A stretch of DNA of 64,000 nucleotides from an uncultured Bacilli bacterium (lineage in GTDB: Bacteria; Bacillota_I; Bacilli_A; RFN20; CAG-631): the NCBI GenBank assembly GCA_947627355.1, contig CANQVX010000009.1, positions 12,168 through 76,167 of the forward strand, given 5' to 3'. Below the pieces are notes generated by a model. That model made no database searches, was not told where the DNA came from, and saw nothing but the letters and a program-made list of their open reading frames with translations. The translations under genes were made by a program, and so were the position numbers. This document shows, piece after piece, positions 3,929 through 53,779 of this stretch; the first letter of the stretch is position 1, and each line of letters begins with the position of its first letter.

Positions 3929-4853
3929 TTATGTCACCACTTTTCAATAATTCAGCATATTTTTTTATTTTTATAAATAAGTGATTGATACCTGATTTAC
4001 TAATAGGTTTTGAGGTAACTTCACTATATTTAACAGCCAATTCTTTTAAAGAAATATCTTGATATTCTTTTCTAAGATTACACAATATTTGTAAATCATT
4101 ATCTAAAACACTTAAATTAGCTTTTTCTTCAATAATTTTAATATATTCAAGTTGAACTTTAGCAGAATTAGTAGTTCTAATATAATTTGCCATATCACAA
4201 TTAGTGATTCTATTTAAATTGTTTTTAACATCTTTATAGGCTCTTACATCTTCAAATTGTAAATATGATTGAACAGCCTTAATGTTACTTAAAAAATCAC
4301 CGATTTTATCGCTTTTTTTAACATAAACTACTTGTTGAGCACGACGTGTTACAATCTTAGCTGGGATATCAATTTTGGCTAATAATTTAACAATTTCTTT
4401 AGCAAAATCTAAATTTAAAACACAAAATTCAAGATGATAATAAGAAACTTTTAAATCATTAACACTACCACAACCTAAAAATAAACCAGCAAGATAAGCT
4501 TGAACTCTTGGTTTTGATTTACTTACCTCTTTGATATATTCTGTTTCATCCATGATACCTAAATCATGAATTATTTGATTGGCTTTTTCTCTTATAATTA
4601 TGATATATTGAGTCTTTTTTAATAATTTCATATTCTTAACAATAGCACTTTTGATTGGTATTTGATAAGTTTTTGAAATATATTTGAATACTTTTTGAGT
4701 TATTTTAGAGTTTTCACTTTTAAATTCAATAGCAAGTCCATGATTAGATAATTGAATATTACCAGCGCATCTTAAAAGAGCGGCAATTGTATCCTTTTCA
4801 TATTCATCATTCAATAAAGCAACTTCAGTTTTGATAGTTGATGAAAAAGACAT
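3921..4853 (-). CDS. whiA: DNA-binding protein WhiA
   Basis: 310 aa; WhiA-like N-terminal LAGLIDADG-derived domain plus C-terminal HTH; conserved neighbourhood with trxB. Confidence 0.8.
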   Translation of the reverse strand: MSFSSTIKTEVALLNDEYEKDTIAALLRCAGNIQLSNHGLAIEFKSENSKITQKVFKYISKTYQIPIKSAIVKNMKLLKKTQYIIIIREKANQIIHDLGIMDETEYIKEVSKSKPRVQAYLAGLFLGCGSVNDLKVSYYHLEFCVLNLDFAKEIVKLLAKIDIPAKIVTRRAQQVVYVKKSDKIGDFLSNIKAVQSYLQFEDVRAYKDVKNNLNRITNCDMANYIRTTNSAKVQLEYIKIIEEKANLSVLDNDLQILCNLRKEYQDISLKELAVKYSEVTSKPISKSGINHLFIKIKKYAELLKSGDING

Positions 4854-4875
4854 AGTCCCACTCCTTTCAAATCAA

Positions 4876-5796
4876 TTAATACGCGTTTTTATCGACAATA
4901 TTTTGACCAGCTATAGCTCCATCATTACAGGCCGTAATGATTTGTCTTAAATCTTTAACTCGAACATCCCCAACAGCATAGATGTTTTTCATATTGGTTT
5001 CCATTTGTTCATTTACTTTGATATAACCTTTACCATCGATATCGATAATATCTTTTACAAAATCACTAGCAGGATCACTACCAATAAATAAGAATAAGCC
5101 ATCGATGTATAAATAAGAAACCTCATTAGTTTCATTATTTTTTACTTTGATACTGTTTATTTTCTTATCGCCTTCTAAAGCAATTACTTCATAAGGTGTT
5201 TTAATAGTAATATTTGGTTTTTTCAATACTTTTTGTAATAAAGTATCACTGCCTCTAAATTCATTACGTCTATGAATTAAAGTAACATCACTTGCAAACA
5301 TTGATAAGTATAATGCTTCTTTTAAAGCACTATCGCCACCACCAACTACAGCAACAGTTTTATTTTCATAAAGTTTCGCATCACATACAGCACAAAATGA
5401 TAAGCCATTACCATAAAACTTATCTTCATTAGCAAGATTTAAATTGCGATATTTAGTGCCTGTAGCAATAATAATGTATTTTGTTTTATATTTTGAATCA
5501 TCCGTTATAACAACATAATAATCTTTTTTAGGTTGAATTTTGATAACTTTTCCATATTTATAATTAGCTTTTAAAGATAAAACTTGTTCAAACATGTTAT
5601 AAGCCAAAGTTGAACCTTCAATTGAAGCACTTCCAGGCCAATTAGTGATTTCACTAGTTCTTACCACTTTCCCACCTGGAGTATCATTTTCTAAAATCAA
5701 AGTTTTTAAATGACCTCTTAACGTATATATAGCAGCACTTAGCCCTGCTGGTCCAGCACCAATGATAACTACATCATAAGTTTCCATTTGGCTCAC
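4876..5796 (-). CDS. trxB: thioredoxin-disulfide reductase
   Basis: 306 aa; FAD motif GAGPAG, redox-active CAVCDA, NADPH motif GGGDSA. Confidence 0.9.
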   Translation of the reverse strand: MSQMETYDVVIIGAGPAGLSAAIYTLRGHLKTLILENDTPGGKVVRTSEITNWPGSASIEGSTLAYNMFEQVLSLKANYKYGKVIKIQPKKDYYVVITDDSKYKTKYIIIATGTKYRNLNLANEDKFYGNGLSFCAVCDAKLYENKTVAVVGGGDSALKEALYLSMFASDVTLIHRRNEFRGSDTLLQKVLKKPNITIKTPYEVIALEGDKKINSIKVKNNETNEVSYLYIDGLFLFIGSDPASDFVKDIIDIDGKGYIKVNEQMETNMKNIYAVGDVRVKDLRQIITACNDGAIAGQNIVDKNAY

Positions 5797-6780
5797 CTAA
5801 CTTTCGCTATTCGTCACATTGTTTTCTTGTCTTTGTTTTAAGATTTCTTCTGTTTTTTCTTTAATCATTTGTTCGCGTTTAGCTTGTAATTCTTTTTCTT
5901 TTTCAATTGAATATTTGTTGGTATATAGATTTGGATAAGTTTTATCTTTGTAATAAAATCTAGCAAATATCATAAGACCAACACCACAAACGATAAACAA
6001 AATAGATGTAAAAATACTTAATGGCATATTGCCAATTTTCATGATAAATTCTTCGTCTCTGAATGGTTCTAAAATAACGCGAACTAAACCATACCAAATT
6101 AAATAACATGCACATAAATCACATGGTTTACGATATTTTTTCCAGAAGTTTCTAAGAACAACGGCAATTAAAATAAAACCAATTAGATTTAAAACTGATT
6201 CATATAAGAATAATGGTTGATTTACTTCATTTAATGCACAAGCTCCACCACTTGAAATATTATTTAAAATAAACTTTGGTAAGAACCATAATTTAGATGC
6301 TCTAACACAACCACCATAAACTTCTTGATTCATAAAATTGCCCCATCTACCGATAATTTGACCGATTAAGATGCTTGGAACAATTGTATCTAGATGATAT
6401 GAAAAAGGAATATCTTTATATTTTTTATGTAAGAAAATCCAACCAAATAAAATACCAGCCATAACACCACCTTGAATGGCTAGTCCTCCACTTACTGGAT
6501 TTATGATATATAAAAAATCTTTTCCTTTAAATTGCTCTAAATCACCTAAAACATACCATAAACGAGCACCAATAATAGCAATTGGAATTACTAATACAAA
6601 AAATGTATCATACATTGATGCAATCTTATTATCTTTTTTAAGTAAATGTCTAGTCCATAAAAAAGCTAAAATGGCGCCAGTTAAAATAAATATAGCATAC
6701 CATCTAATTTCAAGTGAACCGATTCTAATTGCAATAGCTCGGTCATTTGTTGAATTTGGAAACCAAGCAAATGGAAACAT
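5797..6780 (-). CDS. lgt: prolipoprotein diacylglyceryl transferase, with ~45-aa Lys/Glu-rich C-terminal tail
   Basis: Lgt signature region (FPFAWF...IRWYAIFILTG, GRWGNF); start placed at ATG 6780 because GAGGTG RBS lies 6 nt upstream whereas ORF-track start 6813 has none. Confidence 0.85.
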   Translation of the reverse strand: MFPFAWFPNSTNDRAIAIRIGSLEIRWYAIFILTGAILAFLWTRHLLKKDNKIASMYDTFFVLVIPIAIIGARLWYVLGDLEQFKGKDFLYIINPVSGGLAIQGGVMAGILFGWIFLHKKYKDIPFSYHLDTIVPSILIGQIIGRWGNFMNQEVYGGCVRASKLWFLPKFILNNISSGGACALNEVNQPLFLYESVLNLIGFILIAVVLRNFWKKYRKPCDLCACYLIWYGLVRVILEPFRDEEFIMKIGNMPLSIFTSILFIVCGVGLMIFARFYYKDKTYPNLYTNKYSIEKEKELQAKREQMIKEKTEEILKQRQENNVTNSES

Positions 6781-16441: not shown

Positions 16442-19357
16442 ATGAAAAAAGCTAAAAGAATAAGACACATAATTTTTAAATCCATGGTTTTAATTGCATA
16501 TGTTGCTTGTGCAACCACTATTGTTGTGGAATCATGCATGGCTGGTAATGATAGTGCAAAACAAAGCAATTCCGTTGGTCAATCTTTAGGTGGAATTATT
16601 AATAATTTTTCTAAGGATCAAACAAAATATGTTCCTGTGGCTGATGTTGCAGTTAAAAATAAGCCGATAGAAACGGATATTTTATATGTTGGTGATACAT
16701 ATCAAGTAGAAACCGATGTCTTTCCACAAAAAGCAACAAACCAATCATTAACTTATGAAAGTTCTAATTTAGATGTTGCAACTATCGATGACACTGGTTT
16801 GATTACTTTTCTTGAAAGTGGAACTAGTAAAATAACTGTTACAAGTGATGATAATAATAAAATAACTGATCATTTTGAAGTTTTAGTAAATGATGTTATT
16901 GCAACTGATATAAATGTTAAAATCGATAATGCTATTTATAATGAAACTGATGAGTTTTATACAATTTATTTAGGTCATAGTTATCCAATATTTGTAGATG
17001 TTTTACCAGATAATACAACTGATAAAAGTTATGAATATGAGTATAATAGTTCAAGCATTTCAATTCAAGAAGATACCATTACAGCTTTAAGTTATAATCA
17101 ATTACAACCTATTTCTATCACTGTTAAATCAACAGTTGATGATACAGTTAAAAAAGAATTTAAAGTTGTTGTTGACTTTGATGAAATAACTGAACCTACA
17201 AGTATGGAATTTAATGAAGGTTCTTCTTCAAGTCTATTAATTGGTCAAACTAAAAAATTAACCATTAAATATTTACCAGAAAACGTAAGTTTTACCAGGG
17301 CTAATTATACAAGCAGTAACATCAATGTGGCTACTGTTGATAGTACTGGTAAAATTAAAACTGTTGGCGTTGGTACAACTACAATTACAGCAACTAATGC
17401 TAGAAACAATTCATTTAAAGCCACTCATGAATTAACTGTTAATCCATTACCTAATGTAACTGGAATAAAAGTTACTTCAACAATTAACAATCTAGTTATT
17501 GATTCAACAAAAATAATAACAATTACACCTATTCCTTCAAACGCTAAAATTGATATGAAGTTAGCATCATTTACTTCAAATAATCCTGCCATTGCAACTG
17601 TTACAAATACTGGTAGAGTAAAAGGTATAAGTGAAGGAAGTGCATCAATTTCTGTTACTTATAATAATAAGTTTAATGCCACTGTTAAGGTTAATGTTAT
17701 CAGAAAAACTGAAACCAATGTTGTAAATATTTCCGTTAAAAACAAGAAAAATTCAATTTATAAAGGTGAAACAATAGCCGTTAATGATCTAGTTGACATT
17801 CAAGTTACTTCAAACAATAATGCCTTAAATATTGCTAATGAAGAATTTGAATTTGAACCATTGATAAGTAGTCAAGTATCAAGTAGTCTATATAATCCTG
17901 ATGATTATGATGGAATGGAATTTGATACTAATGAAATGGTTACTTTTAATGAAACAAATAAGACAATTACTGCTAAAAATAATGAAGGATTTGCTTTCTT
18001 TAGAGTTTATCATGTGGCCAGTGGTAAATATGCTAATTTCAAATTTGAAATACAAGAAAGACTTCCTGAAGATTTAAGCATTTTATATAACAATAAACCT
18101 GTTGAAGATAATATGGTTTCAATTTATGTTCCTTCTTTAATGCAATCTAACCATTTAGGAAAAGGCCAATTACATTATTTAAGTTTACAATTTGTCGATA
18201 AAAACGCCACTTTTAAAGAATATGAATGGTCAATGAAGACAATTGAAGGTAGTAATGTTTTACGTTATGAAAAACGTGAAGAAGAAAATAGTGTTACTCT
18301 TTATCCTATTAGTGAAGGTATTGTTGAAATCAAAGCAACCATTACTTCACCGATATTAAAATCAACAACTTCTACTTCACTTATTGTAAATGTAAGTCAT
18401 AATGATTTAGAAGAAATGTCCTTATTAGATTTAACAACATCTACTCCTCAATTAATTAATGATGAATTAATTGTTTATAAATCTCAATTAGTTGAACTTG
18501 GTGTTACTTCTACAAAAACTTATTCACGTGCTTTATTTAAATGGAGTTCATCAAATCCAAAAGTAGCTAAAGTTAATTCACATGGTATCATCAATACTAT
18601 TGAATCAGGAACTACTAAAATTACAGTAACTAATCTCTATGGTGAAAAAGCTACTAAATCATTTACATTAACAGTTATTAATCATTTAGGTTTTAATGAA
18701 TCTAAGCCATATGAATTAACTGGTATAAGTATCAAAGCAGTAGCAAAAGATACCTATGAAATGACTAACGGAACTAAAGCAAAAATTAAAATAAATTATG
18801 CTGATAATGTAACTTATACCAAAGTTAGTTATAAATCATCTAATGAAAAGATTTTAAAAGTAGGTAAAGATGGCATTATTATTCCTTTAAAAGTAGGAAA
18901 AGCAAAGGTTACAATTACTTATGATGATGGTATTAGCGTTGCTAAACCATTAACTCAAACAATAACAATTAATATTAAAAAACTACCATTAATTACTGAT
19001 TTTAGTAGTTTTGTCTTTTATGTTAGAAAAGGCCTTGGTCATTTTGGAGTTTTCTTTTTACTAGCAATTGTCTCATTACTTACTTATTTCTTATTCTTTG
19101 ATAAGGATCGTCGTTACATAGGTATTATATTCCATTTCATAATTGGTTATTTATTAGCCTTAGGTACAGAAATTATTCAAGCAACAGTTCCTGGTAGAGT
19201 TGGAAAATACACTGATGTCGATATTGATTTTTCAGGCTTTATGATAGGAACTGCAATCTTCTTTATCGTTTATTTGATTAAATATTTTGTTTCATTTATT
19301 CATAAAAAAATAAAACAAAAGAAAGAAGCAAAACTGCTGGTGAATAAAAATGAATGA
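16442..19357 (+). CDS. large cell-surface protein with multiple Big_2 (bacterial Ig-like group 2) repeats and C-terminal VanZ-like 4-TM domain
   Basis: 971 aa; N-terminal signal/TM; at least five about 80-aa repeats with Big_2 signature (SSN..VATVD.TG.I......GTTTITAT); C-terminal about 120 aa with VanZ-like motif GTEIIQATVPGR...D.D. Confidence 0.6.
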   Translation: MKKAKRIRHIIFKSMVLIAYVACATTIVVESCMAGNDSAKQSNSVGQSLGGIINNFSKDQTKYVPVADVAVKNKPIETDILYVGDTYQVETDVFPQKATNQSLTYESSNLDVATIDDTGLITFLESGTSKITVTSDDNNKITDHFEVLVNDVIATDINVKIDNAIYNETDEFYTIYLGHSYPIFVDVLPDNTTDKSYEYEYNSSSISIQEDTITALSYNQLQPISITVKSTVDDTVKKEFKVVVDFDEITEPTSMEFNEGSSSSLLIGQTKKLTIKYLPENVSFTRANYTSSNINVATVDSTGKIKTVGVGTTTITATNARNNSFKATHELTVNPLPNVTGIKVTSTINNLVIDSTKIITITPIPSNAKIDMKLASFTSNNPAIATVTNTGRVKGISEGSASISVTYNNKFNATVKVNVIRKTETNVVNISVKNKKNSIYKGETIAVNDLVDIQVTSNNNALNIANEEFEFEPLISSQVSSSLYNPDDYDGMEFDTNEMVTFNETNKTITAKNNEGFAFFRVYHVASGKYANFKFEIQERLPEDLSILYNNKPVEDNMVSIYVPSLMQSNHLGKGQLHYLSLQFVDKNATFKEYEWSMKTIEGSNVLRYEKREEENSVTLYPISEGIVEIKATITSPILKSTTSTSLIVNVSHNDLEEMSLLDLTTSTPQLINDELIVYKSQLVELGVTSTKTYSRALFKWSSSNPKVAKVNSHGIINTIESGTTKITVTNLYGEKATKSFTLTVINHLGFNESKPYELTGISIKAVAKDTYEMTNGTKAKIKINYADNVTYTKVSYKSSNEKILKVGKDGIIIPLKVGKAKVTITYDDGISVAKPLTQTITINIKKLPLITDFSSFVFYVRKGLGHFGVFFLLAIVSLLTYFLFFDKDRRYIGIIFHFIIGYLLALGTEIIQATVPGRVGKYTDVDIDFSGFMIGTAIFFIVYLIKYFVSFIHKKIKQKKEAKLLVNKNE

Positions 19358-20196: not shown

Positions 20197-20931
20197 ATGA
20201 AATATGCAGTGCAATTATATTCTTTAGCAAATTATATCAATCAAAATGGTTTAGAAAGTGCTCTTAAAATGGTAAGTGAAGCCGGTTATGAAGGTGTTGA
20301 ATTTGCCGGTTTCTATAACCTTGAGCCTAAAAAAATCCATGAATTACTCGACAAATATCACCTAAAAGCTATTTCTAGTCATACTGGTCTTGAAGCCATT
20401 AAAAATTCTCTTCCTTACTTTTTAGAACTAAACATTTCATATGTCATTGTTCCTTATATAGGTTTCGATAGTTGGTTAAATAATGGTAGTAATATCATTA
20501 ATCAATTTAAAGAACTTCAAGAATTTTTAAAGCCTTATGGTATTACTTTAGGTTATCATAATCACGCTCATGAATTTAAAGATGGTAATGATTTTATAGC
20601 TTATCTATATAAAAATTTATCGACAGTTTCATTAGAATTTGATGTTTGTTGGTTAACTATAGCAAGACAAGATATAGAAGTTATAATGGATACATATCAT
20701 GACAATCTAAAACTAGTTCATATTAAAGATGCTTCTAATTTTGATGATGTTTCCTTAGATGTTCCAGTTATTGGACACGGTATAGTTGATATGTATACAG
20801 TTTTTAAAAAGGTAAACCAATATGAACTTGAATGGGCTATCTTAGAAGCCGAAAATATAAAAGGTGATATTCTTAGCTATTTAAAAGATAGTTTAAAGAG
20901 TATGAAATGGTTTGAAAATGCCACTTTGTAA
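20197..20931 (+). CDS. sugar phosphate isomerase/epimerase (xylose-isomerase-like TIM barrel)
   Basis: 244 aa; typical N-terminal YAVQLYSL...AGYEGVEF pattern of AP-endo2/xylose isomerase-like family. Confidence 0.5.
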   Translation: MKYAVQLYSLANYINQNGLESALKMVSEAGYEGVEFAGFYNLEPKKIHELLDKYHLKAISSHTGLEAIKNSLPYFLELNISYVIVPYIGFDSWLNNGSNIINQFKELQEFLKPYGITLGYHNHAHEFKDGNDFIAYLYKNLSTVSLEFDVCWLTIARQDIEVIMDTYHDNLKLVHIKDASNFDDVSLDVPVIGHGIVDMYTVFKKVNQYELEWAILEAENIKGDILSYLKDSLKSMKWFENATL

Positions 20932-21014
20932 GTTTTTTTGCACATGAAACTTACATTTTTTTATTTAATATTAAATAAAAGTATTGTATAATAACAATGA
21001 AAGAGGTGACTTTA

Positions 21015-21962
21015 ATGGGTTTTTTCAGAAAACAATTAATTAATGTTATCGATTGGAACGAAGTCGATTCACAAGAAATGGTTTATCGTTTCCCATGTGA
21101 AGGTAGTGAAATTAAAAATGGTGCACAATTAACTGTACGTCCTTCACAAGTGGCTATTTTTGTAAATGAAGGTATTATTACTGATGTATTTAGTGAAGGT
21201 AGATATCAATTAACTACAGCTAATTTACCAGTGATGACTAAATTACTATCATGGAAATATGATTTCAAATCACCATTCAAAGCTGATGTATATTTTGTAA
21301 ATACACGTCAATTTCCTAATTTAAAGTGGGGTACTGCTAATCCTATTATGACTCGCGATAGCGAATTTGGTATGGTAAGAATTCGTGCTTATGGTAATTA
21401 TTCTATTCGCGTTGTCGATGCAGCAAAATTCTTAAAAGAAATTTTTGGTACTTTACCAAGTTATTCTACAAAAAATATTCAAGATCATATTAAAACTATC
21501 GTAGTTTCTTCATTTAGTGATTACATTGCTGAAACTAAAATGCCTATTTTAGACATTGCTAGAATGTATGATGAAATCGGTAAAGGAACTGCTGAAAAAG
21601 TTCGTGAACATTTAAATGAAATTGGTTTAACAACAACTTCAGTAATTGTTGAAAATATTTCTCTTCCTGAAGAAGTTGAAAAAGCTATTGATAAACGTTC
21701 TTCAATGGCTGCCATTGGTGATTTAAATGCTTATGCTAAATATCAAACAGCTGATTCTATTAAAGATGCTGCTAATAATCCTGGTGGAAGTGCAGGACTT
21801 GGCGTTGGTATTGGTGCAGGAGTAGGTATGGGTAGAATGATGAGCGAAGCTATGAATACTGCTAATTCAGCTGAGCCTAAAATCTATGTCCTAAATGTGG
21901 TAAAGAAAATCCAGCTAAAGCTAAGTTTTGTTCTGAATGTGGACAATTACTTCATCCTATGA
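21015..21962 (+). CDS. SPFH/band-7 domain protein of the YdjI type (COG4260), reading frame broken near 21879-21887
   Basis: Start at ATG 21015 (AGAGGTGA RBS). N-terminus MGFFRKQLINVIDW parallels B. subtilis YdjI. The frame shifts at run AAAA 21879-21882, and the expected zinc-ribbon tail is encoded in the -1 frame (see next feature). Confidence 0.6.
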   Translation: MGFFRKQLINVIDWNEVDSQEMVYRFPCEGSEIKNGAQLTVRPSQVAIFVNEGIITDVFSEGRYQLTTANLPVMTKLLSWKYDFKSPFKADVYFVNTRQFPNLKWGTANPIMTRDSEFGMVRIRAYGNYSIRVVDAAKFLKEIFGTLPSYSTKNIQDHIKTIVVSSFSDYIAETKMPILDIARMYDEIGKGTAEKVREHLNEIGLTTTSVIVENISLPEEVEKAIDKRSSMAAIGDLNAYAKYQTADSIKDAANNPGGSAGLGVGIGAGVGMGRMMSEAMNTANSAEPKIYVLNVVKKIQLKLSFVLNVDNYFIL

Positions 21963-22126
21963 TGGTTAAATGCGTTAAATGTGGTAAAGATATTCCTCAA
22001 GGAACTAAGTTCTGTCCTGAATGTGGGGCTGCTCAAGTGGTTTCAATGGTTGAATGTCCTAATTGCCATGCTAAAGTTCCTGACAGTGCAAAATTCTGTC
22101 CTGAATGTGGCAAAACTTTAAAATAA
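21887..22126 (+). other. out-of-frame 3' continuation of the YdjI-like gene encoding three CPxCG zinc-ribbon repeats
   Basis: Frame 2 reads NLCPKCGKENPAKAKFCSECGQ...CVKCGKD...FCPECGA...CPNCHAK...FCPECGKTLK* ending at TAA 22124-22126. One extra A in the A4 run would fuse it to the upstream ORF. Confidence 0.55.
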
Positions 22127-22171
22127 TCTTTAATGCAATCATTTGATTGCATTTTTTATGGAGGGGTTATC

Positions 22172-22699
22172 ATGGATGAAAATGTTACTCAAAATAAACA
22201 AGAGCAAATAAATGATGAAATTAAAAACCAAGATGATTTAATCATTGGCAAATGTATCAATTGTGGCTCTACTGTTAGATTTAATCCTGATAAACAATGT
22301 TTAGTTTGTGATAATTGTGGTTCTACTTTTAAAATTCCAAAATCACTTGAAAAATTAAAAGAAAATGATTTTTCAGATTATGTTCAAAAATTTAAACATA
22401 GCAATGATAATTCTTTATCAAAAGCTAATCAATATACTTTAACATGTGAAGACTGTGGGGCTACTATTACCATTGATAAATTTGATTTATCAGTTACTTG
22501 CCCATTTTGTGGTTCTCATAAAACTTTAAAGCAAGATGCTAATAAAGAAATAGTAATTCCTATTGAAGGAATTATTCCTTTTATGTTCTCTCTTGATGAA
22601 TGCAATAAACAATTTACATCTTGGCTTCACAATAAAGCTTTAGCACCTAACAAATTAAAAAAAGGCTTAATAAAGCCTGAATTTGTCGCTTGTTATTAA
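22172..22699 (+). CDS. zinc-ribbon protein, N-terminal part of a gene interrupted by an in-frame TAA (22697-22699)
   Basis: Start ATG 22172 (GGAGGGG RBS 5 nt upstream); two C-x2-C...C-x2-C ribbons; in-frame continuation after the stop. Confidence 0.5.
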   Translation: MDENVTQNKQEQINDEIKNQDDLIIGKCINCGSTVRFNPDKQCLVCDNCGSTFKIPKSLEKLKENDFSDYVQKFKHSNDNSLSKANQYTLTCEDCGATITIDKFDLSVTCPFCGSHKTLKQDANKEIVIPIEGIIPFMFSLDECNKQFTSWLHNKALAPNKLKKGLIKPEFVACY

Positions 22700-22744
22700 C
22701 CATTTTGGACTTATGATGCTAATACTTTTAGTTCCTATTCAGCC

Positions 22745-23335
22745 ATGAGAGGAACATATTATTATGTAACTGTTTCTAGATATAATCCTGCTACTAAACA
22801 AACTGAATACGATCGAGAAAGAAGAATTAATTGGGTTCCAGTTCATGGTACTTATGACTTTTTCTTTAACGACGTTGTTATTAGAGGATCTGAAAATAAA
22901 TTAGATGAATATATTAACAAAGTAACTAAATATGACCTTAAAAAGGTCGTTAAATACGATGAAAAATATGTTTTAGGATATCGTGCTGAACGTTCTTCAT
23001 TAGATTTAGTAGAAGGCTTTACTAGAGCTAAAAATGTAATGCAAAATCATTTAAGATATCTAATTAGATTACAAATTGGTGGCGATGAAGTTAGCAATTT
23101 AAAGATTGATACTAACTATCAAGATATTACTTTTAAACAACTGTTATGCCCTATCTACCTTGCGCGTTATAAAGTAAAAGGTAAAAAGAATTATTACTAT
23201 TATGTAATCAATGGTGAAAACGGTAATGCTTATGGTGATTATCCAATGTCTACTGCTAAGATATTATCAATTGTCTTTAGTATTTTAGCATTTATTCTAT
23301 TTTTAATTTTAGCAATTTATTTTGCAACTCGTTAA
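22745..23335 (+). CDS. C-terminal part of the same interrupted gene (open in the same frame from 22700), ends in one TM helix
   Basis: No RBS before ATG 22745. Codons 22700-22744 (PFWTYDANTFSSYSA) are open and in frame with the upstream ORF. C-terminal TM helix ILSIVFSILAFILFLILAIYF. Confidence 0.45.
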   Translation: MRGTYYYVTVSRYNPATKQTEYDRERRINWVPVHGTYDFFFNDVVIRGSENKLDEYINKVTKYDLKKVVKYDEKYVLGYRAERSSLDLVEGFTRAKNVMQNHLRYLIRLQIGGDEVSNLKIDTNYQDITFKQLLCPIYLARYKVKGKKNYYYYVINGENGNAYGDYPMSTAKILSIVFSILAFILFLILAIYFATR

Positions 23336-26681: not shown

Positions 26682-27617
26682 TCATTCCTTTGTTATATCT
26701 TCGATACAGGTAAAATGAACTCTCATACTAATCATTTTGCCTTCTTTTTTAAATATTAACACATTTTCTTTTTGAATGCTTTCTTTTTTATCAAAGTTTT
26801 TAGAAATATCAATTCTTGCTTGCATTAATAGTTTGCTAAATATTTCAACTTCATCATATGGTTCGTTTTCTTTTAGGCTATAATTTAAATCAACAATGTA
26901 CCAAGTATAAGCATAAACTGCTCCATAAGTACCAACATAGACATCTTCGTTTTTATCAGTTGTTACAACATCACGAACTAGTAAATCACCTTTTTTAACA
27001 TAATCATTTATTTTTACTACTTTTTCACCATTTTTTATATCAAAAGCATAGATAACTCCATCTTTTGTTGCATATAAAGAATTATTTAGTAATACTGGCG
27101 GATTTGATTCTCTTTTGATTAAGAATTTAGCTGTGATGGCTGAACCATTGTTTCTTAATTCAAGCCATTCAATTTTATCTTTTAAATCATATAAAATCTT
27201 TTCTTCAATGATTAGTAAGGATTCGTTACTTATCTTACTCATACCAATTTTAATTTGATTCTTTTTCAAATTTTCTTCAATTAATGGATATAATTGTCTA
27301 GCATTTCCTGAGATATTTATTTTCCAGATGCGATTACTATATAAAAAGAATAAAACAATTGAAAAAATTAAAGCAATCAGCGTGGTCTTAAACTTAAAGA
27401 AATTTTCAAAAATATGAAATAAACCAACACTTTTAATAATTTTAGGATTAATAAAAACTTTTTTTATACGATTACGACAATAAGGTGACGCTAAGAATTG
27501 ATAAGTATAGGAATCTATTTTAGTTAGTTTATAAATGCTTACTTGATTTGCTTTTAATTGGTTGATGGAGTTACAAATATCAAAGACAACTACTTCATAT
27601 AAATCCAAAGATTTCAT
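26682..27617 (-). CDS. yqfD: sporulation protein YqfD-like
   Basis: 311 aa; TM plus NRIWKINISGN segment aligning with B. subtilis YqfD NMVWKIDVTGA, and ...GAVYAYTWY vs ...YGETWY; synteny yqfC-yqfD-phoH. Confidence 0.6.
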   Translation of the reverse strand: MKSLDLYEVVVFDICNSINQLKANQVSIYKLTKIDSYTYQFLASPYCRNRIKKVFINPKIIKSVGLFHIFENFFKFKTTLIALIFSIVLFFLYSNRIWKINISGNARQLYPLIEENLKKNQIKIGMSKISNESLLIIEEKILYDLKDKIEWLELRNNGSAITAKFLIKRESNPPVLLNNSLYATKDGVIYAFDIKNGEKVVKINDYVKKGDLLVRDVVTTDKNEDVYVGTYGAVYAYTWYIVDLNYSLKENEPYDEVEIFSKLLMQARIDISKNFDKKESIQKENVLIFKKEGKMISMRVHFTCIEDITKE

Positions 27618-27826
27618 GCTACTATTTCTCCTAAATCATGAAACTTTAATAAAACTATTTCCCCAACTATGATGATTTCTGTTTTTTCAAGATAGGTTAT
27701 ACAAAGTCTAACTCCTTCAATAAAAACTTTTTTGTTTTTTAAGGCTACTATTATACAATGGTCACTAACTCTTAAAATCTTAGTAAACATTTGAATCCTA
27801 ATTTCGTTTTCTTCTATATAAATCAT
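27614..27826 (-). CDS. yqfC: YqfC/YabP-family sporulation protein (short form)
   Basis: 70 aa; IYIEEN...LKF core matching YabP/YqfC beta-barrel family; AGGTGA RBS; position upstream of yqfD. Confidence 0.45.
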   Translation of the reverse strand: MIYIEENEIRIQMFTKILRVSDHCIIVALKNKKVFIEGVRLCITYLEKTEIIIVGEIVLLKFHDLGEIVA

Positions 27827-27859
27827 TTTATCACCTAATAAAAAATATGCATAAATTAT

Positions 27860-27888
27860 AAAAAAAATGAGTGTAATAAATTACACTC
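27860..27888 (-). terminator. intrinsic terminator of rpsU
   Basis: GAGTGTAAT-tt-ATTACACTC hairpin followed by T8 on the minus strand. Confidence 0.6.
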
Positions 27889-27908
27889 ACATTAGTTGTT
27901 TTTAAAAA

Positions 27909-28088
27909 TTAACGACCATAACCTTTACGACGAGCTTGTTCAGATTTTAATTTTTTGCGAATTCCAGGTTTCAAATAAAATTCTCTTTTTCGAGCTTCAG
28001 CGAGAGTTCCAGCTTTTGTAACTTGTCTTTTGAAACGACGTAAAGCATCATCAAGTGTTTCATTTTCACGAACAACAGTTTTTGGCAT
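27909..28088 (-). CDS. rpsU: 30S ribosomal protein S21
   Basis: 59 aa [21 protein letters not shown]... with strong GGAAGGGGGG RBS; ORF-track upstream extension has no RBS. Confidence 0.9.
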
Positions 28089-28282
28089 TTTATTTCCCCC
28101 CTTCCGAAGCAATAAATTTTACTACTTAAGTATAATTTTTTTTAAGGCTAATTGTCAAGATAAAATTCACATTTTAACGCATGAATTCCCTAAAATCTGG
28201 TAAATTTATCTTTAAGTGGCTAATTTTAAAAATAAAATTATAAAATTTTTATTAAAACACATACTATTTAAGAGGTGAGTTC

Positions 28283-28807
28283 ATGAAAGATACAGGAATA
28301 GTTAGAAGAATCGATGAACTAGGAAGAATCGTTATACCTAAAGAAATTCGTAAGAATTTAAGGATTAATACCGGTGATAATGTTGAAATCTATATGGATG
28401 AAAATAATAAAATCATTTTAAAAAAGTTTTCTAGTTTATTTGGTATGGAAGAAGAATTGTTTAACATAGCCAAAGTTATCAATGAATTTAGTGGGGCAAC
28501 AATTATTGTTACCGATATTGATAAAACCATTGTAAGTTATGGTAAAGATAACGAATTCTATATAGAACAATATATCGATAAAACATTATTAGAAGGTATT
28601 AATCAACAAAGTTTTATCAAAAAACAAAATTTTCATATTGTAACTAATCATGTTGAAAATCGTTTAGCCTATATCTTTCCTTTGTATTGTAAAGAGACTT
28701 TACATGGACTTTTTATCCTTCTTGAAAATGAACGTTCCTTACAAAATTGTGAAAATGATATCGCCCTTTATTTTAAAAAATTTATTGTAAAGCAACTCGA
28801 TAGTTAA
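28283..28807 (+). CDS. spoVT: stage V sporulation protein T-like regulator (AbrB/SpoVT N-domain plus GAF-like C-domain)
   Basis: N-terminus GIVRRIDELGRIVIPKEIRKNL (swapped-hairpin AbrB fold), 174 aa total; followed by S4/yabP/yabQ/spoIIE as in Bacillus. Confidence 0.7.
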   Translation: MKDTGIVRRIDELGRIVIPKEIRKNLRINTGDNVEIYMDENNKIILKKFSSLFGMEEELFNIAKVINEFSGATIIVTDIDKTIVSYGKDNEFYIEQYIDKTLLEGINQQSFIKKQNFHIVTNHVENRLAYIFPLYCKETLHGLFILLENERSLQNCENDIALYFKKFIVKQLDS

Positions 28808-28829
28808 TATAATAATTTTGGTGATGAAA

Positions 28830-29105
28830 ATGCGTCTTGATAAGTATTTAAAAGTCTGTCGGATTATAAAACGAAGGGTAATAAGTAAAGATATTATTTC
28901 CTTTGGTCAAGTTTTATTAAATGGTAGGAAAGCAAAGCCGGCTTCAACTGTTAATGTTAATGATGAAATCACTTTATTTCTAGGAAATAAAAAAATTACC
29001 ATTCAAGTGTTAAGTGTTGATAGTAAAATCAATTCAAAAGATGCTGTCACATCATTATATAAAATAATTAAAGAAGAAGTAATAACCTCTAATGAACCTG
29101 CATAA
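28830..29105 (+). CDS. S4-domain RNA-binding protein (YabO-like)
   Basis: MRLDKYLKVCRIIKRR... S4 signature; start codon choice uncertain (28818 TTG / 28824 / 28830). Confidence 0.55.
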   Translation: MRLDKYLKVCRIIKRRVISKDIISFGQVLLNGRKAKPASTVNVNDEITLFLGNKKITIQVLSVDSKINSKDAVTSLYKIIKEEVITSNEPA

Positions 29106-29128
29106 AGTTAATTAGGAGGTTTTTTATT

Positions 29129-29437
29129 ATGGAAGAACAATTTAATAATGTAGTTCAACAAAATCACTTGATTACTTTAAAAGATCGTAATCTTTTAGAC
29201 CTATCAGGAGTTAAAAACATTCAAAGTTTTGATAATCAAGAATTCCTAATTTCTAGTCCATATGGAACATTACACATTAAAGGAAAAGATTTAACTATTT
29301 CTAAAATGGATACTGATAATGGCGTTTTACAAATAAAGGGCCAAATTGATCAAATAAGTTATATCCAAGATAAAAAATCAGATGGCACTGATTCAAAGCC
29401 AAAAAAAGAAAACTTTTTTACTAAAATCTTTAAATAA
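29129..29437 (+). CDS. yabP: sporulation protein YabP
   Basis: 102 aa; YabP pattern (LTLKDRNLLDLSGVKNIQSFD...LHIKGKDL...LQIKGQI); AGGAGG RBS. Confidence 0.65.
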   Translation: MEEQFNNVVQQNHLITLKDRNLLDLSGVKNIQSFDNQEFLISSPYGTLHIKGKDLTISKMDTDNGVLQIKGQIDQISYIQDKKSDGTDSKPKKENFFTKIFK

Positions 29438-29883
29438 TGAGTCTAGGAAAGCAATTTCAAATCATTCTAATCTCATTTTTATTTGGAATGATATTTCTTG
29501 CGTGCTATGACATTTTTAATCGAACGTTTTATAAACTCAAAGGAAAATTAGTTCGTTTTGTCTTTGAACTAATTTTCTTTAGTGTTTTAGTAACGATTTA
29601 TTATTTTGTCATCTTTTTAATTAATGATGGTATTCTTAGCATCTATATGCCTTTGTTTTTAATTATCGGTGGTCTAGTTTATTTGAAGTTTGTTTCCTCT
29701 CCTTTACAATGTTTATATGAAAAAATTGTTGGTCGAATCGAACAAAAACTAACTAAATTGCATCTTTTCTTTTTAAAAAAATGTAATATAATGAAATTAA
29801 AGTTAAGAAAACTCAGAGGACAAATTAATGAAAAGATTAAAAACAAACGAAACACCAAAACTATCCAAAAAAAGCAAGATTAA
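29437..29883 (+). CDS. yabQ: YabQ-like spore cortex membrane protein
   Basis: 148 aa, 3-4 TM helices, ATGA overlap with yabP, positional equivalence. Confidence 0.45.
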   Translation: MSLGKQFQIILISFLFGMIFLACYDIFNRTFYKLKGKLVRFVFELIFFSVLVTIYYFVIFLINDGILSIYMPLFLIIGGLVYLKFVSSPLQCLYEKIVGRIEQKLTKLHLFFLKKCNIMKLKLRKLRGQINEKIKNKRNTKTIQKKQD

Positions 29884-30040
29884 GATTGGTATCTTTATTT
29901 CCATTAGTGTTATTTGTTTTTTAGTTGTTATCTTTTTATTAATTAGATATCTCGTTCCAGTTTTTTAAATTTTTAATCTTCTTATTTATTTCGACAATGT
30001 TTTTAACATTGTTTTTTTATACTTTTCTTGGGTGATAATT

Positions 30041-32278
30041 ATGACATTTGTAGAAACAGTATCAAAAAAGCAAAAATTATATCGAAATAGCATTTATATT
30101 TTTAAAATTCTAATTATCCTTATTTGTAGCTTACTTGCTCCATTATTTAGTTATAAAGGTCTCAATATTTTATTTATGATTCCTTTACTTTCGTTTTGTT
30201 TTTTTACTGGAATTGATTATTTTTTGTTTTCAATTGTAGGAATTTTAATTAGTTCAATTATAACTTATAATTCAAACACTTATTTTAGTGCTATTGCCAT
30301 ATGTTTATATTTTATTATCTATTTTTTATTTAAATTGTTTCATATTAAAAGCAGTCTAAATCATACTTTTAGTAGTACTTTTGCTATCTTTTTTAGTTAT
30401 CTTGCTTTTCAAATTATCAATCATAGTATGAATTATCTTGAACTAGCTATTGTTTTAACAATTGCTTGTCTTATAAGTGTTTTATTTGCTTTAATCATTC
30501 ATACCTTTCCTTTAAGAAGTATCATTTATCAAAATGAAAATTCTTTAATAATTTCATGTTTATTATTATCTTTGTATCTATCTTTTTTTAAAGTTTCTAG
30601 TGTTAGTATGATTATCATTAGGTTATTAATTTTAATATGCGCTATTAAGGTTAGTATTCAAGCAACTTTAGCTTTTTCATTTTCTTTATATTTAGCTTTT
30701 TTCTTACTTAATTATAATTATACTAATGAACTATTTATTATGATTCTACCGGCAATTATTGTTGGTTTCATGAAAGAAAATAAGAAATGGTTGATAACCT
30801 TATTGTATTTAATTTCAAGTATAATTTTTATCTTTCTTATAAATGGTAAAGATAGCAATTATCTATTACTTGAAGCAATTATAACAACCATTTTAATGAT
30901 TTTTTTACCTTCGTTTATATTTAAACCAGTACTTAAGGTAGATAATTACTATGAAATGTATTTACAAAATCAAAAAGATATTGAAAATAAATTAGAAGAA
31001 TTTTCTTTACTTTTTGATAGTTTAGCAAAACAATTTATCAAATCAAAACAAAGTAGAATTCTAGAACAAGCAAATGTTGAAGTCTTTGATAAACTATGTG
31101 CTAATTGTTTTAAAAATCAGTTTTGTCATCAAAATGGTAATCATCTTTTAATGAATTATGTTAAAGATGGTATTATGAATAACCTAAACGAAAACAAAAT
31201 TAATTATGTTAAAATGAATTGTTTAAAAGCTGATGCTTATTTAAAATTAATCGATAGATTCATGCAAAGTTATCTTTTAAAGCATTATGAAAACGATGAT
31301 TTATGTATCCTTAAAGACGTTGTTTCAAATCAATTTTTAGGCTTTAGTAAAATCATGAACAGTTATAAAGAACATTTAAAAGAAGACAAAATGATTGTTG
31401 CCAATATGTTTTATAAAAACATTAAACAAGAACTTGAGTGTTACAATTATGATGTTTTATATGTCAATAATTTTTCTACTATCAATCAATATTGTTTTGA
31501 TTTAGCAATTGCTAATTGTTCAATTAAAGAAATTAAAAATAATGTTATGCCAACTATCAGTCGATTGCTTAATTGTTATCTTGAAATCATTGATATTCAT
31601 TACAATAATCTTGTAAGCAATTATGTTGTTTTATCAATTCAAGAAACTAAAAAACAAACCATTAATTATTGTTATAAACAAAATGGAAAAGCAACCACTT
31701 ATTGTGGTGATTCCTTGCAATGCATTGATTATCAAAATAAATTCTATTTAGCAATTAGCGATGGTATGGGTAATGGAATAGAAGCCAATGAAGAAAGTAA
31801 GTTTACCTTAGATGTTTTACTATCAACCATTAAAACAGGATTAACTCCAAGTGAAGGTATAACAATTTCAAATTCCTTACTAAAACTTAAAAATCAATAT
31901 GATACTTATACAACTATTGATTTAATTGAAATAGATAAAACAACTTTAATTGCAAAGTTTTATAAAGCTGGAGCATTTTTAAGTCTAATTAGACACGATA
32001 ATGAAATTAAAGTGGTTGAAAATTATGCTCTTCCCATTGGTATAGTTGATAAAATTACTCCAAATGTTATGGAATATCAATTACAACCTGGTGATACTAT
32101 TTATATGATGAGCGATGGTTTAATTGATGAATATAACGAAGACATAAAAAATATAATTCTTAATAATAATGAAGAAAATTCAAACATTGCTATTAAAGAA
32201 TTATATGATAAATTTATGGAACTAAAACAAACAAAAGATGATGTTACTTTTGTAATAATTGATATTAAAAAAGATTAG
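30041..32278 (+). CDS. spoIIE: stage II sporulation protein E (membrane PP2C phosphatase)
   Basis: About 10 N-terminal TM helices, central regulatory region, C-terminal PP2C domain (AISDGMGNG...MMSDGL); start at ATG 30041 (GGGTGA RBS). Confidence 0.8.
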   Translation: MTFVETVSKKQKLYRNSIYIFKILIILICSLLAPLFSYKGLNILFMIPLLSFCFFTGIDYFLFSIVGILISSIITYNSNTYFSAIAICLYFIIYFLFKLFHIKSSLNHTFSSTFAIFFSYLAFQIINHSMNYLELAIVLTIACLISVLFALIIHTFPLRSIIYQNENSLIISCLLLSLYLSFFKVSSVSMIIIRLLILICAIKVSIQATLAFSFSLYLAFFLLNYNYTNELFIMILPAIIVGFMKENKKWLITLLYLISSIIFIFLINGKDSNYLLLEAIITTILMIFLPSFIFKPVLKVDNYYEMYLQNQKDIENKLEEFSLLFDSLAKQFIKSKQSRILEQANVEVFDKLCANCFKNQFCHQNGNHLLMNYVKDGIMNNLNENKINYVKMNCLKADAYLKLIDRFMQSYLLKHYENDDLCILKDVVSNQFLGFSKIMNSYKEHLKEDKMIVANMFYKNIKQELECYNYDVLYVNNFSTINQYCFDLAIANCSIKEIKNNVMPTISRLLNCYLEIIDIHYNNLVSNYVVLSIQETKKQTINYCYKQNGKATTYCGDSLQCIDYQNKFYLAISDGMGNGIEANEESKFTLDVLLSTIKTGLTPSEGITISNSLLKLKNQYDTYTTIDLIEIDKTTLIAKFYKAGAFLSLIRHDNEIKVVENYALPIGIVDKITPNVMEYQLQPGDTIYMMSDGLIDEYNEDIKNIILNNNEENSNIAIKELYDKFMELKQTKDDVTFVIIDIKKD

Positions 32279-51316: not shown

Positions 51317-53779
51317 TTAGTCATTGATTCCAGGAATCAATAATTCTTCAGTTTCAGTATTTGGTTTTTCTTTTGCTTTCTTAGCACGTTTAGTTGATTT
51401 TTCTTTTACTCTAACAACATGTTTTCTTTCAAGGAATAACCATACACGTGGAGCAATAAACATAGATGTAACTAAACCAGATAATAAACCAAATAGAATT
51501 GCTAATGTAAAGTTAAGAGTAGCAGATGTACCAATAATCATTAAGCATACAACTGGAAGTAAAGTAGTAATTGTTGTATAGATTGAACGATTGAAAGTAT
51601 TAGCAAGTGATCTGTTTACGATATCGAAACGATCATTTTGATTGATGTTACCATGATTTGTTTCTTTGCAAAGTTCACGGATTCTATCAAAGATAATAAT
51701 TGTGTTGTTGATTGAATAACCAATAATAGCAAGGATTGCTGATACAAAGACTACTGATACTTCAATTCTAAAGATTGCAAATAATGAAATTGTAACAATT
51801 ACGTCATTTAACAAAGCAAGAATTGCTGCAATAGCATATGTGAAGCGGAATCTAATTGCAATATAGATAACAATTAATAAAGCTGCAACTGCTAGTGATA
51901 ACAAAGCATTTCTAACAGTCATACGAGCAATCATAGGTGAAGTTACATTAGGAGTAATGGTAATGTATTCTGCCCAGTCACCTTCAAGTTGTAATTCATC
52001 TGGGAACAATTCCTCAATTAATGGCAATTTATCAAAATATTCTTTATATTCAACTTTGATATCAACACAGTTAATATCTACGCCTTCATCGTTTTCTTCA
52101 GTATAAGTTTCAACCATAGTATTTGATACTTTTACATCAGCGCCATTCTTTTCATTGAATTCATCAAAGAATCTTTCAACAGCTTTAACATCAAACTTAC
52201 CTTCGTTGTTTTGGAATACTTCAAGTTCACCACTATCGAAATGATCAGTATCTTTAATAGAAACTGTAATGTTAGCACCTTCAACAAAATCTAAGCCGAA
52301 GTTCATTGGTCTATTTCCACTAAAGCCAAAGGCCATCATGAAGATAACACCAACTAAGAATAAACTACCAACACCAATAAAGGCAAATTTTGATTTTTTC
52401 ATGAAATTAACATTGGCAACTTTACCAAAATATTTTTGGCCTTCACCTTTGTTAATATCAGGAATGTATTTTTCCTTAACACCAAACCAAGTCTTACGAT
52501 TATCTAAAACACCTGATTTAACGATTAGTTTTAATAACAAACGAGAGATTAATAACATTACAATTAAGGTTAAAACAATGGAAATAAGTAACATTGTAGC
52601 AAAACCTTTAACTGATCTTTGACCAAAGAAATACAATGCCAAAGCAGCAATCAAAGTTGTAATGTTAGCATCTAGAATTGAAGAAAATGATTTCTTCGTT
52701 CCTTCTTCATAAGCAGCTTTAACACTACGTCCTTTATATAATTCATCACGAATTCTTTCAAATAAGACAATACATGCATCGACTGCCATACCAATACCAA
52801 TAACAATAGCAGCAATGGTATCAGGACCATATTCACCACCAAGTAAGTTAAAGATTAGTAATGTGCCAACTGTATAAACAAGTAATGAAATTGCTGAAAT
52901 AATACCAGGGATACGATAGATAAGAATCATCATACCAATGATTAAAATTAAACCAACTAAACCAGCAATAACACTACGATTAAATGAATTGTTACCAAAA
53001 GTACCACTAACTCTTAAAATATCACCACGAGTTAAGTTGAACTTCATTGCACCAGCACTTAAAAGTTTTGAAATTTGTGTTGCTCTTTCAGCTGTAAAAC
53101 TTCCTGTAATTTGAGCGGTTGAACCAGTTAATGCTTCATTAACAGTAGCATTAACGATGATTTTTCTTGCTGCTTGTTCAGCTCTATCCATATCAACGTT
53201 AGGATTACTATAATAATAGAAATCACTACGACCATTAGGATCAGTAGTTCCATCATCATAACCAATCCAAACCATCATGTTTTTACCAACTAAATCACCA
53301 GTTACATCACCAAATGTAGCTGTATCTTGAATGTTTAATAAAACAACTGGTTGTCCTTGATCATAACTTAAAACGGCTCCATCTTTTTCTTTTAAAACGC
53401 TACCATCCATTAATACATTACCTTCGCCATCAGTGAAAGTAATAGTAGCATCTGTTTCAATTAAAGATGTAACTTCGTCTAAAGCATCATCATCACTAGA
53501 AGCAACAGCCACACGAATGTATTCACTATTTTGACCTTCAATTGAGATGTTAGGATTTCTAACACCAGCAATATCGATACGAGTTGCAATAACTTCAGCA
53601 GCAACATTTGCTACATCTCGTGAACTATTTCCTTCCTTATCAGTTACTTCATAAACGATTTCATATCCACCTTTAAATTCCAAGCCTAGATTAGGTGATT
53701 CCATTACAGATGGAACTCCTAAAAAGACAAGTGCAAATAAGGTTGCAACCATAGATAGAAATGACAAAATTCGACGCAT
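51317..53779 (-). CDS. secDF: protein translocase subunit SecDF (fused)
   Basis: 820 aa, 12 TM with two large periplasmic-type loops; SecD and SecF halves in one ORF. Confidence 0.9.
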   Translation of the reverse strand: MRRILSFLSMVATLFALVFLGVPSVMESPNLGLEFKGGYEIVYEVTDKEGNSSRDVANVAAEVIATRIDIAGVRNPNISIEGQNSEYIRVAVASSDDDALDEVTSLIETDATITFTDGEGNVLMDGSVLKEKDGAVLSYDQGQPVVLLNIQDTATFGDVTGDLVGKNMMVWIGYDDGTTDPNGRSDFYYYSNPNVDMDRAEQAARKIIVNATVNEALTGSTAQITGSFTAERATQISKLLSAGAMKFNLTRGDILRVSGTFGNNSFNRSVIAGLVGLILIIGMMILIYRIPGIISAISLLVYTVGTLLIFNLLGGEYGPDTIAAIVIGIGMAVDACIVLFERIRDELYKGRSVKAAYEEGTKKSFSSILDANITTLIAALALYFFGQRSVKGFATMLLISIVLTLIVMLLISRLLLKLIVKSGVLDNRKTWFGVKEKYIPDINKGEGQKYFGKVANVNFMKKSKFAFIGVGSLFLVGVIFMMAFGFSGNRPMNFGLDFVEGANITVSIKDTDHFDSGELEVFQNNEGKFDVKAVERFFDEFNEKNGADVKVSNTMVETYTEENDEGVDINCVDIKVEYKEYFDKLPLIEELFPDELQLEGDWAEYITITPNVTSPMIARMTVRNALLSLAVAALLIVIYIAIRFRFTYAIAAILALLNDVIVTISLFAIFRIEVSVVFVSAILAIIGYSINNTIIIFDRIRELCKETNHGNINQNDRFDIVNRSLANTFNRSIYTTITTLLPVVCLMIIGTSATLNFTLAILFGLLSGLVTSMFIAPRVWLFLERKHVVRVKEKSTKRAKKAKEKPNTETEELLIPGIND

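Follow-up and report, generated by a model that had tools for sequence, protein, structure and literature searches.

A clone-specific nonsense mutation and a private single-base deletion in a conserved SPFH/zinc-ribbon gene pair of an uncultured gut Bacilli bacterium

Two neighbouring genes that are both interrupted in the same assembled sequence evoke the question of what has interrupted them: gene loss, a reversible switch, a recoding event, or faulty sequence. Such a pair lies in a 64,000-nucleotide stretch of DNA from an uncultured Bacilli bacterium (contig CANQVX010000009.1 of assembly GCA_947627355.1, positions 12,168 to 76,167), referred to here as the window. The upstream member, gene 1, has a predicted SPFH (band-7) protein with a zinc-ribbon tail as its product and carries a single-base frameshift, while gene 2, predicted to encode a zinc-ribbon membrane protein, carries an in-frame TAA. 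An earlier reading made from the letters of the window alone (the sequence-only reading) had described the two as a Psp-like membrane-stress module, and had offered ongoing loss, homopolymer-mediated phase variation and assembly error as explanations. Comparison with conspecific contigs and with homologues leads to a different and more asymmetric picture, to which a probability of about 0.78 is assigned: the pair is a conserved module of an SPFH gene and its partner, in which the nonsense mutation of gene 2 is real and recent, and the deletion in gene 1 is private to one record and unverified. The case is one of ordinary recent gene inactivation, involving one verified, segregating nonsense mutation and one private deletion that is not amenable to verification.

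Both interruptions are disruptions, and not the native arrangement, because the homologues of both genes are single open reading frames (ORFs). Homologues of gene 1 number 7,312 at E<=1e-30, and the best 120 of these are all about 370-400 residues long, with the same fused SPFH-ribbon architecture; for some, the recorded name is ‘membrane protease subunit, stomatin/prohibitin family, contains C-terminal Zn-ribbon domain’. The homologues of gene 2 are uninterrupted ORFs of 365-410 residues, found in many phyla and aligned over about 90% of the read-through product. A two-ORF arrangement conserved in relatives, which had been named at the outset as the observation that would speak for a native split, was not seen: relatives encode each of the two genes as one uninterrupted ORF.

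The strongest evidence concerns gene 2, and comes from conspecific metagenome contigs retrieved by exact-protein look-up. These comprise a same-clone group, 99.97-100% identical to the window (ERZ27249266, ERZ27249268, ERZ27249505, ERZ27249022, ERR10663718, ERR10663719 and ERR10663721), and other haplotypes of the species, 99.4-99.8% identical to it, represented by ten contigs from the ERZ27249xxx, ERZ27060311, DRR84900x, SRR27728189, SRR29273038 and ERR10663787 series. Codon 176 of gene 2 reads TAA in the window and in six of the six same-clone contigs that cover the position, which derive from four to six assemblies, and TTA, within an uninterrupted 387-residue ORF, in the ten contigs of other haplotypes, which come from four or more accession series; in more distant homologues, the column is occupied by I, M, L, V or T. 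The TAA allele is a haplotype marker rather than a random error, because it is linked to two further clone-specific single-nucleotide polymorphisms (SNPs), at 22188 and 21875. Leu176 TTA>TAA is a genuine derived T>A transversion, fixed in one clone. The in-frame TAA at 22697-22699, the open frame beyond it and the lack of a ribosome-binding site at the next ATG, all noticed from sequence alone, were confirmed, and the proposed check of strains and relatives for intact versions recovered an intact gene 2 in the ten other-strain contigs and in distant homologues.

This pattern bears directly on the idea that both lesions are sequencing or assembly errors and that the two genes are intact in the organism. 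Such an idea is reasonable on general grounds, given that the source is itself a metagenome-derived contig, that related conspecific assemblies have a coverage of only about 2-6x and hold private differences at about 6 per 100 kb, and that the frameshift is private to the window’s record. As a joint explanation of the two lesions it is nevertheless very improbable, being already refuted for the TAA, which occurs in six further contigs from other samples or runs, in linkage with the same clone-specific SNPs.

The premature stop removes 211 residues of the gene 2 product, including the strand with the invariant Y-x-P-x-W-T-x-D motif of the family, the core sheet and the membrane helix. In the AF2 model of a 54%-identical homologue, it interrupts the first long beta strand of the core after five residues. 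The first in-frame start past the stop, ATG 22745 (Met192), is not preceded by a Shine-Dalgarno sequence, and the frame is otherwise open to 23335; the methionine is conserved, ancestral and internal, and a restart at this point would leave out the invariant motif. These features weigh upon a further set of explanations, namely a programmed -1 frameshift in gene 1, a stop in gene 2 that is read through or reassigned, or a gene 2 that functions as two separate polypeptides; these could account for the fact that both downstream frames are fully open and that the C-terminal part begins at a conserved methionine. Explanations of this kind are highly unlikely: strains that are more than 99.4% identical, as well as all relatives, have single uninterrupted ORFs with no conserved recoding signal, and the gene 1 site, CCU AAA AUC UAU, contains no slippery heptamer of the X XXY YYZ type. 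Likewise, a functional split or read-through of gene 2 is unlikely because the break falls inside a strand, no ribosome-binding site precedes Met192, and the YxPxWTxD motif would be lost from the C-terminal piece. Stop-codon reassignment was also considered and rejected, TAA being the main stop of the window, where it closes 30 of 48 long ORFs, with TGA also in use. In this clone, gene 2 is a young pseudogene, yielding at best a soluble stump of 175 residues. Disruption relative to intact orthologues, with independent confirmation, is what distinguishes a pseudogene; both are found for gene 2, and the disruption of gene 1 is seen in the window’s record alone. For gene 2, the suggestion of a module in the process of being lost fits a nonsense allele that is fixed in the clone and intact in other strains.

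The lesion of gene 1 is of a different nature. The original frame of the gene runs through codon 290 (ATC, 21882-21884) and the remainder resumes at TGT 21887, in the -1 frame; the ribbon tail is not fused in frame with the SPFH domain in the window, and is fused in 13 of the 13 other conspecific contigs, among them five same-clone contigs that span the site. The site reads ATCTTATGT in 12 conspecific contigs, ATCATATGT in one (L011) and ATCTATGT in the window, corresponding to codons ATC TTA TGT, ATC ATA TGT and ATC TAT GT, respectively. The AAAA run at 21879-21882, to which the sequence-only reading had mapped the break, is identical in all 14 conspecific contigs covering the site, window included. 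The lesion is placed at T21885 because the other contigs carry the same four A’s plus one extra base after ATC: in gene 1, a TT doublet at 21885 is one T short, and the A run plays no part. The zinc-ribbon stretch in the -1 frame from 21887 to 22126 had been described correctly, as had a single-base break just before it, and only the assignment of this break to the A run has to be abandoned. A fifth A inserted in silico does restore a 370-residue ORF, as had been claimed, but this ORF has Asn-Leu at the point where the real protein has Ile-Leu, and conspecific contigs hold four A’s followed, after ATC, by a T (or A).

It is this in silico restoration that gave rise to the suggestion of phase variation of gene 1 through the A4 run. 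The observations just described make such a mechanism extremely improbable, since the tract is invariant in 14 of 14 conspecific contigs, what differs in reality is a T lying three bases 3' of it, and relatives have no tract at this point (L014, for example, reads ...NEAKIICPNCG...). In addition, contingency tracts that slip at useful rates are about seven bases long or more, and a run of four is far below this size.

The 315-residue product of the frameshifted allele corresponds to a single record among about 15 billion proteins, located on a 79,614-bp contig at NCBI, evidently the one from which the window was taken; an exact look-up of this product in a gene-position index gave no match, and neither did a scan of JGI metagenomes with a pattern across the frameshift site that allowed T, A or a deletion. 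The intact 370-residue product of the same clone is present on four contigs. Furthermore, the deletion at 21885 is the sole private difference of the window over its 48.3-kb overlap with same-clone contigs (14196-62524). The other assemblies display about seven private differences in 125 kb, one of them a deletion in a T8 run, and all six of their private single-nucleotide variants (SNVs) are nonsynonymous. Private variants of this kind look unselected, as would errors or brand-new mutations, and the 21885 deletion belongs to the same class and behaves like its other members. A consensus error and a very recent secondary mutation are about equally likely origins for it; assembly error, excluded for the recurrent TAA, thus retains an even chance for the frameshift.

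Private changes have also been recorded in other contigs. In same-clone contig L113 (6002-8464, sample ERZ27249505), the secDF gene (window 51317-53779, minus strand) has a private TTA>TAA change at 53463, L106*, that splits it into parts of 105 and 697 residues; the four private substitutions of this sample are three A/T transversions and one C>A. In another strain (L094:3001-4050, ERZ27249386, 3.6x), gene 1 carries an independent Leu8 TTA>TAA (window 21037) and gene 2 is intact; the gene caller restarts gene 1 of this strain at Met22, giving 349 residues.

The identity of the two proteins is of importance for any explanation that links their lesions. The first ORF opens at 20997, and the real start of gene 1, which spans 21015-22126, is ATG 21015, preceded at a distance of six bases by the ribosome-binding site GAGGTG (21003-21008); gene callers pick the same ATG on conspecific contigs, with a product of 370 residues. 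The Band_7_1 domain (PF13421) is detected with E 1.9e-86 and 289.5 bits against a gathering cut-off of 24, over profile positions 1-210 of 211, and the tail of the restored protein matches Zn_Ribbon_1 (E 5.5e-24, 83.6 bits, three stretches) and DZR (E 1.7e-22). Based on these domains, gene 1 is predicted to encode a soluble SPFH protein of the Band_7_1, COG4260 or YdjI (SamI) type, and the initial identification of a YdjI/SamI-type protein with a zinc-ribbon tail is upheld. Gene 2 spans 22172-23335 and is preceded by the ribosome-binding site GGAGGGG (22160-22166). Eight cysteines, C28, C31, C46, C49, C92, C95, C110 and C113, are invariant across its family and would form two ribbons, while the core is not covered by any Pfam or NCBIfam family; a helix equivalent to that at the C-terminus is modelled at high confidence at residues 381-407 of homologue P0001 (AF2). 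The gene 2 product is predicted to face the cytoplasm and to consist of two zinc ribbons at the N-terminus, an alpha/beta core that is uncharacterised, and one membrane helix at the C-terminus, and the description of zinc ribbons and a transmembrane segment given from sequence alone is borne out by the invariant cysteines and the hydrophobic C-terminal run.

The two genes form a conserved module. Homologues of both recurrently appear on the same contigs in protein searches. In a scan of GTDB species representatives for gene 2 loci, seeded with a six-sequence alignment, a Band_7_1 gene lies directly upstream and on the same strand in 25 of 80 loci. Among the five nearest relatives with sequence 5' of gene 2, ‘Bacilli bacterium’ metagenome-assembled genomes (MAGs) from rabbit and human gut, both genes are intact and 1-55 nucleotides apart, and synteny with the window extends to the wider neighbourhood; neither the window locus nor these five relatives have a third module gene. 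In several phyla, gene 2 is the partner conserved downstream of SPFH genes of this type. In loci of Pseudomonadota and Bacteroidota (L021, L026, L032 and L033, at about 4700-5900), the end of the Band_7_1 gene encodes, in place of zinc ribbons, a tail rich in Trp and Gln (…LVWxQGMxxW…PPPLP). The module is conserved, but the tail of its SPFH protein can be exchanged. A bolder suggestion, that gene 2 represents a large class of obligate membrane partners for Band_7_1 proteins, still unnamed and structurally unsolved, in Bacillota, Bacteroidota, Pseudomonadota and other phyla, and that 21885 is additionally a true mutational hot spot, is speculative and rather unlikely.

The soluble SPFH protein YdjI of B. 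subtilis needs the membrane proteins YdjG and YdjH to form membrane foci and to recruit PspA (PMC8581546; bioRxiv 10.64898/2026.02.06.704340). By analogy with YdjI and YdjG/YdjH, gene 2 may act as the membrane anchor or partner of gene 1. In the clone with Leu176 TTA>TAA the module is probably non-functional, while other strains keep it intact.

In a rival explanation, both lesions are biological and causally linked: once the anchor encoded by gene 2 was lost, gene 1 would have become useless or harmful and been inactivated next, with the species in the course of shedding the module. A number of observations point in this direction, including the real and clonal nature of the TAA, the fact that the window’s sole private difference in 48 kb hits the partner gene, the independent Leu8 nonsense change in gene 1 of strain L094, an F112S substitution that, in one same-clone contig, alters the invariant CPFCGS motif within the stump of gene 2, and the dependence of YdjI localisation on YdjG and YdjH in B. 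subtilis; moreover, if the source assembly is based on an Illumina de Bruijn graph, the reads must contain the deletion path. However, the frameshift occurs in one record only and five same-clone contigs keep the frame, while the enrichment of lesions in the module is not significant, since the module accounts for 0.30 of the exposure-weighted coding bases sampled and P=0.028 for three of three disruptive events is uncorrected, with two of the events having defined the finding. A private nonsense call also affects a housekeeping gene, secDF, in assemblies of 3.5-5x, and private SNVs that are all nonsynonymous are as expected of noise or of brand-new mutations. Finally, variation between haplotypes is mostly synonymous, much as in neighbouring genes (seven synonymous and two missense changes in gene 1, five and two in gene 2, nonsense changes excluded), and purifying selection keeps both genes constrained in the species as a whole. 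Stepwise decay of the module is thus a tentative alternative, with somewhat less than an even chance. Recurrent independent loss of the module is suggestive, a possibility and not a result, and was down-weighted because the enrichment is not significant and an equivalent private nonsense call occurs in secDF. The argument that two lesions in neighbouring genes make chance less likely is weaker than it looks: the frameshift is private, and elsewhere in these low-coverage assemblies private variants, the secDF nonsense call among them, arise at a similar rate.

The preferred reading, of a conserved module with one real nonsense mutation and one unverified deletion, also has to face several observations that weigh against it. 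Samples that carry the TAA all belong to one accession series (ERZ27249xxx / ERR106637xx) and may represent one cohort or one host, in which case ‘fixed’ may mean fixed in a single local population. Against an otherwise clonal background, nucleotide 21885 takes three states: most contigs have T, sample ERZ27249505 has A, and the window lacks the base. In sample ERZ27249268, two contigs break at this very site, L005 stopping at 21884 and L010 starting at 21874. The three states and the contig ends hint at something site-specific, and two hits on the same nucleotide are improbable by chance because rates of private variants are about 1e-4 per base or less; possible candidates include a local hot spot, heterogeneity within a sample, a frame-restoring +A on a deletion background, or a site-specific artefact. 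In addition, the zinc-ribbon matches of gene 2 fall below the curated Pfam cut-offs (24.1 bits for TF_Zn_Ribbon, PF08271, against a cut-off of 29), and a homologue search from a Sporosarcina seed returned no protein named YdjG, only Sporosarcina or clostridial proteins named ‘hypothetical’ or ‘TFIIB-type zinc ribbon’. Neither a YdjH-like nor a PspA gene lies beside the pair, and the anchoring model is one carried over from a four-gene operon to a two-gene one.

The features of the locus are collected in Table 1.

Table 1. Coordinates of features in and around the gene 1-gene 2 pair (window numbering)
Feature	Position	Strand	Basis
Promoter-like site TTAATA-16-TATAAT, 5' of gene 1	20965..20992	+	Consensus scan, 10/12 matches; pattern only
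5' portion of gene 1, original frame, codons 1-290: SPFH domain (Band_7_1, residues 23-232) and glycine-rich linker	21015..21884	+	Pfam PF13421
Frameshift site: codon 291 (TTA Leu in conspecifics) minus one T, leaving T21885 A21886	21885..21886	+	Comparison with conspecific contigs
Gene 1, 3' part: three zinc ribbons (six CxxC), -1 frame, closing TAA 22124-22126	21887..22126	+	Pfam on restored protein
Terminator-like hairpin followed by TTTTAT, between the genes, abutting the gene 2 ribosome-binding site	22132..22153	+	Pattern scan, 9-pair stem, 3 G-C pairs; putative
Gene 2, N-terminal fragment: 175 codons and premature TAA, two zinc ribbons, helical region	22172..22699	+	Invariant cysteines, ribosome-binding site
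Premature stop: TAA at codon 176, from TTA (Leu)	22697..22699	+	Comparison with clone and other-strain contigs
Rest of gene 2 past the stop, codons 177-387, open in frame but lacking a translation start signal: beta-sheet core domain, membrane helix	22700..23335	+	Read-through alignment
C-terminal transmembrane helix of gene 2, residues ~364-384	23261..23323	+	Hydrophobic run ILSIVFSILAFILFLILAIYF

The pair is directly flanked by a gene of the AP_endonuc_2 family on one side and a DEAD-box helicase gene on the other. Promoter-like sites are no more numerous in the region than shuffling predicts, and the site upstream of gene 1 is to be taken as a pattern match only. The putative hairpin between the genes recalls the terminator reported between pspA and ydjG of B. 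subtilis, and could uncouple the expression of the pair. A scan of the locus with Rfam gave no match, and neither intact protein matched any anti-phage defence model of PADLOC-DB at E<=1e-3.

The window has a G+C content of 28% and long ORFs tightly packed under the standard bacterial code, and its host is read as an uncultured, spore-forming, low-G+C gut member of the Bacillota (class Bacilli), with the pair being chromosomal. The sporulation genes yqfD, spoVT, yabP, yabQ and spoIIE, at 26682-32278, indicate a spore-former, and the closest relatives are ‘Bacilli bacterium’ MAGs from rabbit, human and chicken gut (Candidatus Caccosoma-like). The species was not found among GTDB r232 representatives, where a genome scan with the single intact protein gave no match.

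Comparison of the strains also brought to light differences that lie away from the pair. A 9-bp in-frame deletion at window 18889-18897 (L094/L096, ERZ27249386) shortens the product of a 971-residue Big_2/VanZ surface protein gene to 968 residues. The DRR849007 strain (L097, L117) displays dense substitutions at 20307-20337, where the AP_endonuc_2 gene has seven SNPs in 31 bp, and at 61248-61422, where valS has dozens; these clusters look like recombination tracts imported from a more divergent strain. A T-box leader (62803-63023, minus strand, Rfam RF00230, 136.7 bits) lies upstream of valS (60159-62768). It is followed in window numbering by tandem paralogous genes for lipoprotein-like products of 137 residues, at 63060-63473 and 63480-63893 on the minus strand, with nearly identical N-termini; other strains differ from these by about 10-15%, with indels, pointing to a fast-evolving or recombining pair.

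The biological weight of the case is small, and a real loss at the strain level would suggest that a YdjI/SamI-type module is dispensable for one gut clone. The modest value that is left comes from the uncharacterised gene 2 family and from a natural pair of intact and broken alleles: matched strains of this kind would be a resource for the study of poorly understood SPFH-anchor pairs, and, should gene 2 represent the class of obligate partners suggested above, knock-out and intact alleles in strains that are 99.4-100% identical would amount to a natural experiment on the function of such pairs. The A allele at 21885 could have arisen as a reversion that restores the frame, in which case gene 1 would still be under selection. 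Two lessons of method can also be drawn, namely that independent metagenome assemblies are able to separate a true segregating nonsense mutation from a private single-base indel, and that an apparent homopolymer frameshift can be mis-mapped when one sequence alone is available.

Among known systems, the closest counterpart is an operon of B. subtilis under sigma-W control, pspA-ydjGHI (pspA-samGHI). Gene 1 resembles YdjI/SamI in being predicted as a soluble SPFH protein with a low-complexity, Gly-rich region, a C-terminal zinc finger and no membrane segment of its own, and in adjoining a gene for a zinc-ribbon membrane protein; its N-terminus, MGFFRKQL, is close to the MSFFRNQL of YdjI, a comparison limited to the terminus derived from a published ydjI primer (PMC8581546). 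It differs in having three zinc ribbons in about 370 residues, in its position as the first gene, ahead of its partner, whereas ydjI is the last of its operon, and in the absence of a pspA or ydjH-type gene from the locus or window. YdjG combines a TF_Zn_Ribbon domain with transmembrane segments (PMC9239133), and the same Pfam label is precomputed on many gene 2 homologues; the N-terminal CxxC ribbon of YdjG (MIISYKCPNC, primer-derived; PMC8581546) can be set beside the family consensus CPNCGS of gene 2, which is likewise predicted to be membrane anchored and is linked genetically to a Band_7_1 SPFH gene. YdjG acts together with YdjH, whereas the gene 2 locus has no YdjH counterpart. The analogy between gene 1 and YdjI is good, and that between gene 2 and YdjG is plausible, on indirect evidence from primer-derived termini, a shared Pfam label and linkage to the SPFH gene. 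PspA_IM30 is not among the precomputed Pfam labels of the genes spanning 14-64 kb of the window, and a crude composition filter found no coiled-coil-like ORF of at least 120 residues in the whole window; ‘Psp-like’ can accordingly be kept as an analogy of working principle only, since the locus has no PspA- or YdjH-like gene and none was detected across the 64 kb of the window.

More distant parallels are provided by HflK/C-FtsH and QmcA-YbbJ (SPFH-NfeD), where an SPFH scaffold is likewise encoded beside a membrane partner, presumably acting on or with it. In these systems, however, the SPFH proteins have membrane anchors of their own, and the partners, the FtsH protease and NfeD, are unrelated to gene 2; matches to HflK are marginal, with E 6e-4 and 19 bits where the cut-off is 159. 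As an instance of gene inactivation, the pair falls into the same class as the recent pseudogenes of host-associated bacteria, with which it shares a single-nucleotide lesion, intact sister alleles and a sequence that has not decayed further past the lesion.

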